Origin: Escherichia coli
GTDB lineage: Bacteria > Pseudomonadota > Gammaproteobacteria > Enterobacterales > Enterobacteriaceae
Assembly (NCBI RefSeq): GCF_051903065.1
Contig: NZ_CP178438.1
DNA: 64,000 nt
Reading direction: 5' to 3' (one strand)
The position numbers and the translations under genes were made by a program. Positions 19,735 through 63,002 of this stretch are shown here, piece by piece (position 1 is the stretch's first letter; each line of letters opens with the position of its first letter). The notes beneath the pieces are model-generated. The model was given only the letters and a program-made list of their open reading frames with translations, was not told where the DNA came from and made no database searches.

Positions 19735-20559
19735 ATGCAGTTCTCGAAAATGCATGGCCTTGGCAACGATTTTATGGTCGTCGACGCGGTAACGCAGAAT
19801 GTCTTTTTTTCACCGGAGCTGATTCGTCGCCTGGCGGATCGGCACCTGGGGGTAGGGTTTGACCAGCTGCTGGTGGTTGAGCCGCCGTATGATCCTGAAC
19901 TGGATTTTCACTATCGCATTTTCAATGCTGATGGCAGTGAAGTGGCGCAGTGCGGCAACGGTGCGCGCTGCTTTGCCCGTTTTGTGCGCCTGAAAGGGCT
20001 GACCAATAAGCGCGATATCCGCGTCAGCACCGCCAACGGGCGGATGGTTCTGACCGTCACCGATGATGATCTGGTCCGCGTAAATATGGGCGAACCCAAC
20101 TTCGAACCTTCCGCTGTGCCGTTTCGCGCTAACAAAGCGGAAAAGACCTACATTATGCGCGCCGCCGAGCAGACAATCTTATGCGGCGTGGTGTCGATGG
20201 GAAATCCGCATTGCGTGATTCAGGTCGATGATGTCGATACCGCGGCGGTAGAAACGCTTGGTCCTGTTCTGGAAAGCCACGAGCGTTTTCCGGAGCGAGC
20301 CAATATCGGTTTTATGCAAGTGGTTAAGCGCGAGCATATTCGTTTACGCGTTTATGAGCGTGGGGCAGGAGAAACCCAGGCCTGCGGCAGCGGCGCGTGT
20401 GCGGCGGTTGCAGTAGGGATTCAGCAAGGTTTGCTGGCCGAAGAAGTACGCGTGGAACTCCCCGGCGGTCGTCTTGATATCGCCTGGAAAGGTCCGGGTC
20501 ACCCGTTATATATGACTGGCCCGGCGGTACATGTCTACGACGGATTTATTCATCTATGA
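19735..20559 (+). CDS. dapF: Diaminopimelate epimerase, 274 aa
   Basis: Start trimmed by one codon to [13 protein letters not shown]; conserved GNDF and catalytic Cys (CGNGARC) motifs. Confidence 0.9.
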
Positions 20560-21263
20560 AGCAACCAGGGGAAGAACTGCAGGAAACACTCACGGAGCTT
20601 GATGACCGGGCGGTTGTCGATTATCTGATTAAAAATCCTGAGTTTTTTATCCGCAATGCGCGCGCAGTAGAAGCGATACGTGTGCCGCATCCGGTACGCG
20701 GCACCGTTTCGTTGGTCGAGTGGCACATGGCCCGCGCACGTAATCATATTCATGTTCTGGAAGAGAACATGGCGCTGTTGATGGAACAGGCTATCGCCAA
20801 CGAAGGCCTGTTTTATCGCCTACTCTACCTGCAGCGCAGTCTCACCGCCGCCAGCAGTCTCGACGATATGCTGATGCGCTTTCACCGCTGGGCGCGCGAT
20901 CTCGGCCTGGCAGGTGCGAGTCTGCGCCTGTTTCCAGATCGCTGGCGCTTAGGTGCGCCGTCGAACCACACTCATCTGGCATTAAGCCGTCAGTCTTTCG
21001 AACCGCTGCGTATTCAGCGTTTGGGGCAGGAACAGCACTATCTTGGGCCGCTTAACGGACCGGAGCTGCTGGTGGTGCTACCGGAAGCGAAAGCGGTGGG
21101 ATCGGTGGCGATGTCGATGCTGGGGAGCGATGCTGATTTGGGTGTCGTGCTGTTTACCAGTCGCGATGCCAGTCACTATCAACAAGGGCAGGGAACGCAG
21201 TTACTTCATGAAATTGCGCTGATGTTGCCGGAGCTTCTGGAGCGTTGGATTGAACGCGTATGA
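20556..21263 (+). CDS. yigA: DUF484-family protein YigA, 235 aa
   Basis: Start overlaps dapF stop (ATGA); upstream of xerC. Confidence 0.8.
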
Positions 21264-22156
21264 CCGATTTACACACCGATGTAGAACGCTACCTACGTTA
21301 TCTGAGCGTGGAGCGTCAGCTTAGCCCGATAACCCTACTTAACTACCAGCGTCAGCTTGAGGCGATCATCAATTTTGCCAGCGAAAACGGCCTGCAAAGC
21401 TGGCAACAATGCGATGCAGCGATGGTACGCAATTTTGCTGTACGCAGTCGCCGTAAAGGGCTGGGAGCAGCAAGCCTCGCGTTACGGCTTTCTGCGCTAC
21501 GTAGCTTTTTTGACTGGCTGGTCAGCCAGAACGAACTCAAAGCTAACCCGGCGAAAGGTGTTTCGGCACCGAAAGCGCCGCGTCATCTGCCGAAAAACAT
21601 CGACGTCGACGATATGAATCGGCTGCTGGATATTGATATCAACGATCCCCTCGCTGTACGCGACCGTGCAATGCTGGAAGTGATGTACGGCGCGGGTCTG
21701 CGTCTTTCCGAGCTGGTGGGGCTGGATATCAAACACCTCGACCTGGAGTCTGGTGAAGTGTGGGTAATGGGGAAAGGCAGCAAAGAGCGCCGCCTGCCGA
21801 TTGGTCGCAACGCTGTGGCGTGGATTGAGCACTGGCTTGATTTGCGCGACCTGTTTGGTAGCGAAGACGACGCGCTTTTTCTGTCGAAACTGGGCAAGCG
21901 TATCTCCGCGCGTAATGTGCAGAAACGCTTTGCCGAATGGGGCATAAAACAAGGGCTGAATAATCACGTTCACCCGCATAAATTACGTCACTCGTTCGCT
22001 ACGCATATGCTGGAGTCGAGCGGCGATCTTCGTGGTGTGCAGGAGCTGCTGGGTCATGCCAACCTCTCCACCACGCAAATCTATACTCATCTTGATTTTC
22101 AACACCTTGCCTCGGTGTACGATGCGGCGCATCCACGCGCCAAACGGGGGAAATAA
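21260..22156 (+). CDS. xerC: Tyrosine site-specific recombinase XerC, 298 aa
   Basis: Tyrosine-recombinase C-terminal motifs ([27 protein letters not shown]); start overlaps yigA stop. Confidence 0.9.
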
Positions 22157-22872
22157 TGCGTTTTTACCGGCCTTTGGGGCGCATCTCGGCGCTCACCTTT
22201 GACCTGGATGATACCCTTTACGATAACCGTCCGGTGATTTTGCGCACCGAGCGAGAGGCGCTTACCTTTGTGCAAAATTATCATCCGGCGCTGCGCAGCT
22301 TCCAGAATGAAGATCTGCAACGCCTGCGCCAGGCGGTACGGGAAGCGGAACCCGAGATTTATCACGACGTGACGCGTTGGCGTTTTCGTTCGATTGAACA
22401 AGCGATGCTCGACGCCGGGCTGAGTGCCGAAGAAGCCAGTGCAGGCGCACACGCAGCAATGATTAACTTTGCCAAATGGCGCAGCCGAATCGACGTCCCG
22501 CAGCAAACTCACGACACCTTAAAACAGCTGGCGAAGAAATGGCCGCTGGTGGCGATCACCAACGGTAACGCCCAGCCGGAACTGTTTGGTTTGGGGGATT
22601 ATTTTGAGTTTGTGCTGCGCGCTGGCCCGCACGGGCGCTCAAAACCGTTCAGCGATATGTACTTTTTGGCTGCGGAAAAACTCAACGTGCCGATCGGCGA
22701 GATCTTACATGTTGGGGACGATCTCACCACTGACGTGGGTGGGGCAATTCGCAGCGGAATGCAGGCCTGTTGGATCAGACCGGAAAATGGCGATCTGATG
22801 CAAACCTGGGACAGCCGTTTACTGCCGCATCTGGAAATTTCCCGGTTGGCATCTCTGACCTCGCTGATATAA
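22156..22872 (+). CDS. yigB: HAD-superfamily phosphatase YigB, 238 aa
   Basis: HAD motif I (FDLDDTL) near the N-terminus; immediately follows xerC. Confidence 0.85.
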
Positions 22873-22881
22873 TCAGCAAAT

Positions 22882-22897
22882 CTGTATATATACCCAG
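22882..22897. promoter_or_regulatory. LexA (SOS) box upstream of uvrD
   Basis: ctgtatatatacccag matches the CTG-N10-CAG SOS box consensus, about 60 bp upstream of the uvrD ATG. Confidence 0.75.
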
Positions 22898-22955
22898 CTT
22901 TTTGGCGGAGGGCGTTGCGCTTCTCCGCCCAACCTATTTTTACGCGGCGGTGCCA

Positions 22956-25118
22956 ATGGACGTTTCTTACCTGCTCGACAGCCTTAATGACAAACAGCGC
23001 GAAGCGGTGGCCGCGCCACGCAGCAACCTTCTGGTGCTGGCGGGCGCGGGCAGTGGTAAGACGCGCGTACTGGTGCATCGTATCGCCTGGCTGATGAGCG
23101 TGGAAAACTGCTCGCCATACTCGATTATGGCGGTGACGTTTACCAACAAAGCGGCGGCGGAGATGCGTCATCGTATCGGGCAACTGATGGGCACCAGCCA
23201 GGGCGGCATGTGGGTCGGCACCTTCCACGGGCTGGCGCACCGCCTGCTGCGTGCGCACCATATGGACGCCAATCTGCCGCAGGATTTCCAGATCCTAGAC
23301 AGTGAAGACCAGCTACGCCTGCTTAAGCGTCTGATCAAAGCCATGAACCTCGACGAGAAGCAGTGGCCGCCGCGCCAGGCAATGTGGTACATCAACAGCC
23401 AGAAAGATGAAGGCCTGCGTCCGCATCATATTCAAAGCTACGGTAATCCGGTGGAGCAGACCTGGCAGAAGGTGTATCAGGCGTATCAGGAAGCGTGTGA
23501 CCGCGCGGGCCTGGTGGACTTCGCCGAGCTGCTGCTGCGCGCTCACGAGTTGTGGCTTAACAAGCCGCATATCCTGCAACACTACCGCGAACGTTTTACC
23601 AATATCCTGGTGGACGAATTCCAGGATACCAACAACATTCAGTACGCGTGGATCCGCCTGCTGGCGGGCGACACCGGCAAAGTGATGATCGTCGGTGATG
23701 ACGACCAGTCAATCTACGGCTGGCGCGGGGCGCAGGTGGAGAATATTCAGCGTTTCCTCAATGATTTCCCCGGTGCCGAAACTATCCGTCTGGAGCAGAA
23801 CTATCGTTCTACCAGTAACATTCTGAGCGCCGCGAACGCCCTGATTGAAAACAACAACGGGCGTCTGGGTAAAAAACTGTGGACCGATGGCGCGGACGGT
23901 GAGCCTATTTCCCTCTATTGCGCTTTTAACGAACTCGATGAAGCGCGTTTTGTGGTTAACCGCATCAAAACCTGGCAGGACAACGGTGGGGCGCTCGCCG
24001 AGTGCGCCATTCTCTACCGCAGCAACGCCCAGTCGCGTGTACTGGAAGAAGCACTGTTGCAGGCAAGTATGCCGTACCGTATTTACGGCGGGATGCGATT
24101 CTTCGAACGCCAGGAAATCAAAGATGCGCTCTCGTATCTGCGCCTGATTGCCAACCGCAACGACGACGCGGCCTTTGAGCGTGTGGTGAATACGCCAACG
24201 CGGGGTATTGGTGACCGGACGCTGGACGTGGTACGTCAGACATCGCGCGATCGCCAGTTAACACTCTGGCAGGCATGTCGTGAGCTGTTGCAGGAAAAAG
24301 CGCTCGCCGGGCGAGCTGCCAGCGCCTTGCAGCGATTTATGGAATTAATCGACGCCTTAACGCAAGAAACTGCCGATATGCCGCTGCATGTACAGACTGA
24401 CCGGGTAATTAAAGACTCCGGCCTGCGCACCATGTACGAGCAGGAGAAGGGCGAAAAAGGCCAGACGCGTATCGAAAACTTAGAGGAACTGGTGACGGCA
24501 ACGCGCCAGTTCAGCTACAACGAAGAAGATGAAGATTTAATGCCGCTGCAGGCGTTCCTCTCCCATGCGGCACTGGAAGCGGGCGAGGGGCAGGCGGATA
24601 CCTGGCAGGACGCGGTGCAGTTGATGACGCTACACTCGGCGAAAGGGCTGGAGTTCCCGCAGGTGTTTATCGTCGGTATGGAAGAGGGCATGTTCCCAAG
24701 CCAGATGTCGCTGGATGAAGGCGGTCGTCTGGAAGAAGAACGCCGTCTGGCCTACGTTGGCGTAACCCGTGCGATGCAGAAACTGACGCTGACCTACGCG
24801 GAAACTCGCCGTCTGTATGGCAAAGAGGTTTACCATCGCCCGTCGCGCTTTATCGGCGAGCTGCCGGAAGAGTGTGTGGAAGAGGTGCGCCTGCGCGCCA
24901 CGGTAAGCCGCCCGGTCAGCCATCAGCGTATGGGTACGCCGATGGTCGAGAACGACAGCGGCTACAAGCTCGGCCAGCGTGTACGCCACGCTAAGTTTGG
25001 TGAAGGCACTATCGTCAATATGGAAGGCAGCGGCGAGCATAGCCGTTTGCAGGTGGCATTCCAGGGCCAGGGTATTAAATGGCTGGTGGCGGCTTACGCC
25101 CGGCTGGAGACGGTATAA
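22956..25118 (+). CDS. uvrD: DNA helicase II, 720 aa
   Basis: Start trimmed to ATG giving MDVSYLLDSLNDKQREAVAAP...; Walker A (GAGSGKT); the track ORF extends upstream through the LexA box. Confidence 0.9.
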   Translation: MDVSYLLDSLNDKQREAVAAPRSNLLVLAGAGSGKTRVLVHRIAWLMSVENCSPYSIMAVTFTNKAAAEMRHRIGQLMGTSQGGMWVGTFHGLAHRLLRAHHMDANLPQDFQILDSEDQLRLLKRLIKAMNLDEKQWPPRQAMWYINSQKDEGLRPHHIQSYGNPVEQTWQKVYQAYQEACDRAGLVDFAELLLRAHELWLNKPHILQHYRERFTNILVDEFQDTNNIQYAWIRLLAGDTGKVMIVGDDDQSIYGWRGAQVENIQRFLNDFPGAETIRLEQNYRSTSNILSAANALIENNNGRLGKKLWTDGADGEPISLYCAFNELDEARFVVNRIKTWQDNGGALAECAILYRSNAQSRVLEEALLQASMPYRIYGGMRFFERQEIKDALSYLRLIANRNDDAAFERVVNTPTRGIGDRTLDVVRQTSRDRQLTLWQACRELLQEKALAGRAASALQRFMELIDALTQETADMPLHVQTDRVIKDSGLRTMYEQEKGEKGQTRIENLEELVTATRQFSYNEEDEDLMPLQAFLSHAALEAGEGQADTWQDAVQLMTLHSAKGLEFPQVFIVGMEEGMFPSQMSLDEGGRLEEERRLAYVGVTRAMQKLTLTYAETRRLYGKEVYHRPSRFIGELPEECVEEVRLRATVSRPVSHQRMGTPMVENDSGYKLGQRVRHAKFGEGTIVNMEGSGEHSRLQVAFQGQGIKWLVAAYARLETV

Positions 25119-25172: not shown

Positions 25173-26090
25173 TTACTTAGCGCACTTCTTCACATCAATA
25201 TTCCAGTTAGCACCAGACGCAACCTGATGTTTCTGCGCGAAATTATCCATATTCAGCGCCACGGAAACATTCAATAAGCTGTTCAGATACACCATCGGCT
25301 GACCTTCCGGCACATCGCCGAAGCTTGCGACATACGGCATTTTCCCTTCGTATTTTTGCTGGGAACCTTCGGAAATGGTTACACACAACGTGTCGTTGAG
25401 TTTGATTCCTGCCTGATTCAGCAACTCGTCGCTGATATTGCTCCAGACGTTGCCGTACTGAATATCGAGAATCGGGATATTGCCCTTCACTTCACCTTTT
25501 GTTGCTTTGGCTTTCTGATAAGAAAGTTCGACAACTTTTGCCGGAAGCTCTGGCCCCACCTGTTCGAACGTGATCGCTCCGGAAGCCAGGCGTGCACCGG
25601 TGTAGGCATACACGTCACGACCGTGGAAGGTATATGACTTTTCGGAACCTTTCAGGCGGTTGGTTTTTTCATCGATTTGCCGGACGCTCTCAATACCCAG
25701 CGATTCCGCCACCAAAGTGAGCGTACCGTTATCCGGTGAAACGAAGTATTGACCGTTTTTGGTTTTCAGCACTACCGATTTACGGTCTGTACCTACACCT
25801 GGATCGACCACGCTAACAAACACCGAACCTTGTGGCCAATAACTGGCGGTCTGATACAGGCGGTAAGCGCCTTCCCAGATGTTATACGGTGGAATTTCGT
25901 GTGTTAAATCAAAGATTTTAAGATTATGGTCAACACCGAATGCGACCCCTTTCATCGCCGAGACGGCACCATCTTTCAGGCTAAAATCAGTTTGTAAAAT
26001 CAAAGCGTTATCCGCATAAGCGGATGATGATCCCAGACACGTTAATAAAAATAACGTTGCGAGCGTTTTTTCATTTTTGTTTCCCTTCAT
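25173..26090 (-). CDS. Signal-peptide-bearing SAM hydroxide adenosyltransferase family protein (DUF62, fluorinase/chlorinase-like), 305 aa
   Basis: N-terminal signal peptide (LATLFLLTCLGSSSAYA); family motifs TDFSLKDGAVSAMKGV, VDPGVGTDRKSV, SPDNGTLTLV, FHGRDVYAYTGARLASG, YGNVWSNI align with fluorinase FlA as I recall it. Confidence 0.75.
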   Translation of the reverse strand: MKGNKNEKTLATLFLLTCLGSSSAYADNALILQTDFSLKDGAVSAMKGVAFGVDHNLKIFDLTHEIPPYNIWEGAYRLYQTASYWPQGSVFVSVVDPGVGTDRKSVVLKTKNGQYFVSPDNGTLTLVAESLGIESVRQIDEKTNRLKGSEKSYTFHGRDVYAYTGARLASGAITFEQVGPELPAKVVELSYQKAKATKGEVKGNIPILDIQYGNVWSNISDELLNQAGIKLNDTLCVTISEGSQQKYEGKMPYVASFGDVPEGQPMVYLNSLLNVSVALNMDNFAQKHQVASGANWNIDVKKCAK

Positions 26091-38681: not shown

Positions 38682-38742
38682 GAAAGTCCTTCACTTCGGC
38701 ATGAATAATTTGCGCTTGAGGAATATACAGTAACCGCCAATT

Positions 38743-43104: not shown

Positions 43105-43196
43105 GCGTAGCGCCTCGCAGGAAATGCCTTTCCAACTGGACGTTTGTACAGCACAATTCTATTTTGTGCGGGTAAGTTGTTGCGTCAGGAGGCGTT

Positions 43197-61197: not shown

Positions 61198-62739
<1,542 letters not shown>

Positions 62740-62807: not shown

Positions 62808-62884
<77 letters not shown>

Positions 62885-62926: not shown

Positions 62927-63002
62927 GGGGCTATAGCTCAGCTGGGAGAGCGCCTGCTTTGCACGCAGGAGGTCTGCGGTTCGATCCCGCATAGCTCCAC
63001 CA
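62927..63002 (+). tRNA. alaT: Spacer tRNA-Ala (anticodon UGC)
   Basis: GGGGCTATAGCTCAGCTGGGAGAGCGCCTGCTTTGCACGCAGGAGG...CATAGCTCCACCA. Confidence 0.95.

Follow-up and report, generated by a model that had tools for sequence, protein, structure and literature searches.

The LexA box and embedded promoter of uvrD in Escherichia coli: sequence, conservation and the leader downstream

Introduction

In Escherichia coli the gene for DNA helicase II, uvrD, follows a tightly packed group of genes that ends with yigB, and a short palindrome with the CTG-N10-CAG frame of a LexA-binding site lies between the two. This arrangement raises the question of whether the palindrome is the operator of a promoter that belongs to uvrD itself, and how far expression of uvrD might also depend on transcripts entering from upstream. 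The gene is listed among the LexA-regulated genes (PMC11228462), and reports of its control by LexA go back to 1983; to judge by the title that Easton & Kushner gave their 1983 paper (cited in PMC7835731), binding of LexA at the site has been reported as well. The uvrD SOS box is already known and is a textbook feature; the element described here is the same as that of Easton & Kushner 1983 and of the LexA regulon compilations, with no difference, and it offers nothing new for biology beyond showing that a true regulatory site can be recognised from sequence alone.

Methods

The window, by which we mean the whole 64-kb stretch of DNA that was analysed, was scanned on both strands with a symmetrised 20-bp LexA matrix. 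Table 4 of PMC3009722 lists 18 E. coli LexA boxes; 17 of these went into the matrix, and the one of uvrD was excluded. For the comparative work the N-terminal 300 residues of UvrD were used to search species-representative genomes, which gave 80 loci from Enterobacterales, Vibrionales, Alteromonadales and relatives. In each locus 420 nt were scanned (400 nt upstream of uvrD and its first 20 nt), and the remaining ~3400 nt served as control DNA. Seventeen Enterobacteriaceae were aligned (alignment A1).

Results and discussion

The gene cluster upstream of uvrD

DapF, YigA, XerC, YigB and UvrD were all identified by NCBIfam equivalog models above the curated cut-offs, UvrD reaching 1422.7 bits with model NF008743 (cut-off 965). 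In RefSeq the genes follow one another on a single strand in the order lptM, dapF, yigA, xerC, yigB, uvrD, the locus being identical over 22400-23400. A 1-kb piece around the site was matched in 5425 of 5426 complete E. coli genomes, with 100% identity in strain ECNB21-M121. An earlier note on this DNA, made from the sequence, had described the four genes from dapF to yigB as tightly coupled, with ATGA overlaps at 20556 and 21260 and an abutting stop and start at 22156. Both overlaps were recovered (20556-20559 at the dapF/yigA junction and 21260-21263 at the yigA/xerC junction), but the abutment has to be corrected, as the xerC/yigB junction reads TAATG (22154-22158) and its stop and start codons share one base, a 1-nt overlap. 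All four genes thus lie on one strand with overlapping stop and start codons, the arrangement of translationally coupled genes. The features of the locus are collected in Table 1.

Table 1. Features of the uvrD locus, with positions counted from the first letter of the window.
Feature	Position	Strand	Remarks
dapF, diaminopimelate epimerase	19735..20559	+	RefSeq transfer, NCBIfam
yigA (DUF484)	20556..21263	+	RefSeq transfer, NCBIfam
xerC	21260..22156	+	RefSeq transfer, NCBIfam
yigB (HAD phosphatase)	22156..22872	+	last of upstream cluster; 3' end bears the predicted uvrD promoter
-35 hexamer TTGGCA	22846..22851	+	within yigB coding sequence (Leu-Ala codons); promoter scan
extended -10 TGaTATAAT	22865..22873	+	hexamer TATAAT 22868-22873, preceded by TG
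LexA operator (SOS box), 20-mer ATCTGTATATATACCCAGCT	22880..22899	.	CTG-N10-CAG core 22882-22897
leader RNA hairpin GGCGGAGGGCG-UUG-CGCUUCUCCGCC, candidate attenuator	22904..22929	+	-17.1 kcal/mol
U5 tract	22937..22941	+	7 nt 3' of hairpin
Shine-Dalgarno-like GGCGGTG of uvrD	22946..22952	+	putative ribosome-binding site
uvrD, DNA helicase II, 720 aa	22956..25118	+	RefSeq, NCBIfam

The LexA box

On the plus strand the core of the box reads CTGTATATATACCCAG, beginning 9 nt past the yigB stop codon TAA and ending 58 nt ahead of the uvrD start codon (ATG, 22956-22958). Its CTG (22882-22884) and CAG (22895-22897) are separated by exactly 10 bp, which is the invariant frame of LexA operators, and 14 of its 16 positions agree with CTGTATATATATACAG. 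In the 64-kb window the 16-mer is the sole match to itself even when up to three mismatches are allowed, where 0.18 matches would be expected by chance and at least one was found in 17 of 100 shuffles. The 25-mer around it (22877-22901, AAATCTGTATATATACCCAGCTTTT) is identical to the uvrD entry in Table 4 of PMC3009722. The earlier note's placing of a LexA-consensus SOS box between yigB and uvrD is therefore upheld.

It had also been proposed to check the box with a position weight matrix, a low score relative to background being named as grounds for refutation, and the box passed this test. With 16.37 bits it was the top match of the window on either strand, a score with an exact tail probability of 1.1e-6 per position, or 0.07 matches expected per 64 kb. 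In a leave-one-out ranking of the 18 validated boxes, which range from 7.0 to 28.5 bits, it fell within the range and took the 15th place. The matrix score alone is not decisive on the scale of a genome, as about 5 chance matches of this strength are expected per 4.8 Mb, and 16.37 bits or more was reached in 3.7% of 64-kb windows simulated with a first-order Markov model; the window itself holds 30 CTG-N10-CAG frames. From these figures one could argue that the 16-mer has no LexA function and is an AT-rich palindrome that arose by chance, or no more than a part of the initially transcribed region of the promoter. Against such a reading stand the identity of the site with a published and experimentally supported box (PMC3009722, PMC11228462) and its conservation, to which we return below.

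The second-best match to the matrix was AACTGGACGTTTGTACAGCA at 43134-43153 (14.6 bits), located 44 nt ahead of the GTG start codon of rmuC (43197). As rmuC (yigN) is a listed SOS gene (PMC11228462, PMC8072944), this is the known SOS box of rmuC, and the recovery of a second true site provides an internal positive control, indicating that the matrix detects real LexA sites. The third-best match, TACTGTATATTCCTCAAGCG on the minus strand at 38713-38732 (12.4 bits), lies in the divergent intergenic region of metR and metE. It was rejected as a LexA box, having AAG instead of CAG on the right beside a perfect left half-site, and is probably a chance match, of which about 0.6 are expected per window.

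The box of uvrD shares with the operators of recA, lexA, uvrB and rmuC the CTG-N10-CAG frame, the TA-rich spacer, the overlap with a promoter and the range of scores. It is weaker than most gammaproteobacterial LexA operators, carrying AT in place of TA at positions 1-2, CC at 14-15 and CT at 19-20, so that ATCTGTATATATACCCAGCT departs from TACTG(TA)5CAGTA at six positions (1, 2, 14, 15, 19 and 20). Judged by its sequence, it is a weak to medium LexA operator, and its published heterology index of 8.5 (PMC11228462) places it among the weaker half of the regulon's members. An index of 5.66 that we calculated from the 18 sites of PMC3009722 was discarded, since the published values are based on another set of sites.

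The promoter at the end of yigB

In the last codons of yigB a promoter scan identified TTGGCA and TATAAT separated by 16 nt, which agree with the sigma-70 consensus at 11 of 12 positions and were the only match this strong in the 6.2 kb scanned. The 16-nt spacer and the TG at -15/-14 are those of an extended -10 promoter, and three bases of the -10 hexamer (TAA, 22870-22872) double as the stop codon of yigB. Between the end of the predicted promoter at 22873 and the LexA 20-mer there are 6 nt, so that the operator adjoins the promoter; transcription is predicted to start at about 22880. With a strong, near-consensus sigma-70 promoter immediately upstream of the box, it follows that uvrD has a LexA-controlled promoter of its own, as had been suggested before. 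The operator of uvrD is placed just 3' of the -10 element, whereas that of recA is found between -35 and -10 (PMC5999292).

Conservation among relatives

The best match in the DNA upstream of uvrD reached at least 12 bits in 64 of the 80 loci, with a median of 15.0, whereas the control DNA, although eightfold larger, did so in none of the 80 (median 4.6). Related species thus have a box at the orthologous position, and even in distant genera, in which spacer and leader have diverged, its CTG and CAG persist. Taken with the identity to the published box, these results make it very improbable that the palindrome is a product of chance. We hold it to be almost certain, on the basis of the sequence, the matrix score, the promoter match and the conservation across species observed here, that the uvrD promoter has its LexA operator at 22880-22899.

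All 48 Enterobacterales loci have yigB adjoining the 5' side of uvrD, an arrangement that is almost never found in Vibrionales or Shewanella. In most Vibrionales a LexA box nevertheless lies 26-41 nt ahead of the uvrD ATG, and since the box is kept there in the absence of yigB, it goes with uvrD and not with yigB. An embedded extended -10 promoter (TTG, 16-17 nt, TGnTA...T) was found in 45 of the 48 Enterobacterales loci, 44 of them with the form TTGGnn, 16 nt, TGnTATAAT, and in these 45 the box starts anywhere from a 1-nt overlap with the -10 element to 16 nt after it. Taken singly, TTGG is retained in 45 of the 48 loci, and TGnTATAAT likewise in 45. In alignment A1 the -35 hexamer TTGGCA, GCTGATATAAT and, within the box, TGTA and CAG show no variation, and the Shine-Dalgarno-like CGGCGGTGCC shows almost none; the yigB codons beside the -35 vary at both synonymous and non-synonymous positions. 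Among 5425 E. coli genomes, 5401 carry the 121-nt control region with an identity of 99% or more, and 2584 do so for the surrounding 1 kb. What the comparison adds is that the yigB-embedded promoter together with its LexA box is an ancient and conserved arrangement of the Enterobacterales, and that the part of the leader separating the box from the ribosome-binding site changes readily in evolution.

Several lineages depart from this pattern. No LexA-box-like sequence was found within 400 nt upstream of uvrD in eight Shewanella loci (L053, L054, L060, L061, L063, L064, L068 and L074) or in two loci from Alteromonadales metagenome-assembled genomes (L073 and L078); three other Alteromonadales loci (L076, L079 and L080) do have a uvrD box. 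It seems that uvrD has left the LexA regulon in the lineages lacking the box, or that the LexA motif differs there. In Xenorhabdus ehlersii (L036:1465-1484) the sequence is AAATCTATATAAAAATATTA where Photorhabdus has TTCTGTATAAAAACACAGCA, with the promoter intact and both CTG and CAG lost, which looks like a recent decay of the operator. In nine Vibrio and Aliivibrio loci (L058, L062, L069, L071, L072, L075, L077, L081 and L082) the left CTG reads ATG, as in ATATGTATAAATAACCAGTA, and the right half of the same site, ACCAGTA or ACAGTA, is retained 27-41 nt before the uvrD ATG. The conserved TATAAAT within this Vibrio/Aliivibrio box may, to judge from its sequence, double as a -10 element.

Proposed mode of control and the uvrD leader

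The LexA dependence and the inducibility of uvrD are known from the literature, in which the uvrD promoter is described as an early UV-induced SOS promoter (PMC5999292). In the explanation that we favour, the strong sigma-70 promoter in the last yigB codons would start transcription at about 22880. With such a start the operator would extend from about +1 to +20 and fall within the footprint of RNA polymerase. A LexA dimer bound to both CTG/CAG half-sites would occlude RNA polymerase binding or promoter escape, and following DNA damage RecA-stimulated self-cleavage of LexA would free the promoter and give rise to a modest increase in uvrD transcription, in line with what is established for the SOS response (PMC11228462). 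The six departures from the consensus would make repression leaky and leave a substantial basal level of uvrD, and further downstream a stable hairpin and U5 tract in the leader may attenuate transcription.

The leader of uvrD in E. coli is 76 nt long. Its hairpin at 22904-22929 and its U5 tract fit the attenuation to which Easton & Kushner 1983 (reference 156 of PMC7835731) refer in their title. One may ask whether uvrD is controlled mainly by attenuation or termination at this leader structure (22904-22941) instead of by the operator. A stem of -17.1 kcal/mol with five U residues downstream would be in keeping with such a role, as would the term used in the 1983 title and the recurrence of hairpins in the leaders of many Enterobacterales. 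Like an intrinsic-terminator attenuator, the leader places a GC-rich hairpin and then a U run between promoter and start codon. It differs from such attenuators in the 7-nt gap between stem and U tract, where the U tract of an intrinsic terminator follows within 0-2 nt, in the lack of conservation beyond Escherichia and in having no identified antiterminator structure or leader peptide. The hairpin was not called by a canonical terminator scan, the U tract being too distant from the stem; the whole leader folds no better than its shuffles (z = 0.38), and in Rfam nothing matched 22300-23300 at E <= 1.

The comparison with relatives also speaks against the leader as the main site of control. Leaders of the Enterobacterales range from 11 to 136 nt, and the hairpins that many of them bear are unrelated and non-homologous; the shortest leaders have none, a hairpin being missing in 5 of the 47 Enterobacterales leaders scanned (L006, L016, L030, L033 and L044, all of 11-27 nt). 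In alignment A1 and among the Enterobacterales leaders the E. coli hairpin sequence was neither conserved nor alignable outside Escherichia. In the locus of the E. coli species representative (L003:1448-1473) the 3' arm of the hairpin reads CTCCACC and not CTCCGCC, a G-to-A change that weakens the stem from -17.1 to -11.7 kcal/mol, so that E. coli genomes differ among themselves in this candidate attenuator. We consider it unlikely that uvrD is governed mainly by its leader, and the hairpin is treated as a lineage-specific accessory element outside the conserved core.

Individual leaders show how variable this region can be. In Superficieibacter electus (L041) the leader hairpin CGCGAAACG...CGUUUCGUG is followed by the T-rich GTTTTTTGTTTT and resembles a canonical terminator, and a soil metagenome-assembled genome (L005) has a 110-nt leader with a long and very stable hairpin (-22.8 kcal/mol) that looks like an inserted REP-type palindrome. 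The uvrD leader is a hotspot for insertions. A switch that would sequester the ribosome-binding site by pairing CCGCC of the 3' arm with GGCGG of the Shine-Dalgarno-like element was considered for E. coli and rejected, its pairing reaching -10.5 against -17.1 kcal/mol for the hairpin and having no comparative support.

Read-through and basal expression

Published measurements differ in how strongly uvrD responds to damage. After treatment with AZT an induction of about 2-fold was reported for E. coli uvrD (PMC11228462), and a uvrD reporter was not induced under mild ciprofloxacin (bioRxiv 10.1101/2024.11.28.625836). In Salmonella, uvrD was induced 13.9-fold by nalidixic acid, and cells in which basal uvrD was ON independently of LexA were also described (PMC8072944). 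All of these values would fit a strong promoter that carries a weak operator.

They may also be read to mean that LexA binds the site while expression of uvrD is near constitutive, maintained by a leaky strong promoter, by read-through from lptM-dapF-yigA-xerC-yigB or by both, with LexA acting as a weak modulator or partial roadblock. The rank of 15 among 18 boxes and the heterology index of 8.5 would suit such a proposal, as would the modest or absent induction by AZT and mild ciprofloxacin and the LexA-independent ON cells of Salmonella. A terminator scan found no plus-strand terminator between the end of yigB and the LexA box; the two weak plus-strand terminator-like sites that it returned (starts at 21492 and 22365) lie within coding regions and occur at chance frequency. 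Five relatives (L006, L016, L030, L033 and L050) have leaders of 11-21 nt, too short to accommodate a terminator. On the other hand, the fact that 64 of 80 species have retained the box speaks for selection on LexA control, both UV and nalidixic acid do induce uvrD, and a published operon listing, yifL dapF yigA xerC yigB, ends at yigB (PMC11376589). We therefore regard near-constitutive expression as possible but doubtful, and as a proposal that would refine control by the LexA operator rather than exclude it.

The embedded promoter, the box that is linked to uvrD and the fluid leader together frame the question of read-through from the xerC operon. Since the promoter is inside yigB, transcripts from upstream have to run on into the operator and then the leader of uvrD; with the yigB stop codon in the -10 hexamer, an arrangement shared by 45 of 48 Enterobacterales, there is no place for a terminator between the two transcription units. 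Read-through from the upstream cluster into uvrD is plausible from this arrangement, and it could add to LexA-independent basal expression of the kind seen in Salmonella. Putting these observations together we tentatively suggest a joint reading, which we would not yet call probable, in which transcripts reading through from upstream would account for part of the basal uvrD expression that does not depend on LexA, LexA on its operator would stand as a roadblock in their path, and the hairpins of the variable leaders may act no less as a leaky terminator for the upstream operon than as an attenuator for the uvrD promoter.

Other features of the window

Between uvrD and yigE a gene of the SAM hydrolase / SAM-dependent halogenase family lies on the minus strand (25173-26090). 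The segment was found in 2413 of 5426 complete E. coli genomes, indicating that the gene is accessory at this position. Towards the end of the window tRNA-Ile(GAT) (62808-62884) and tRNA-Ala(TGC) (62927-63002) occupy the spacer of a ribosomal RNA operon, the 16S gene of which spans about 61198-62739 and the 23S gene about 63177 to the window end, as placed by transfer of coordinates from NZ_CP083585.1.
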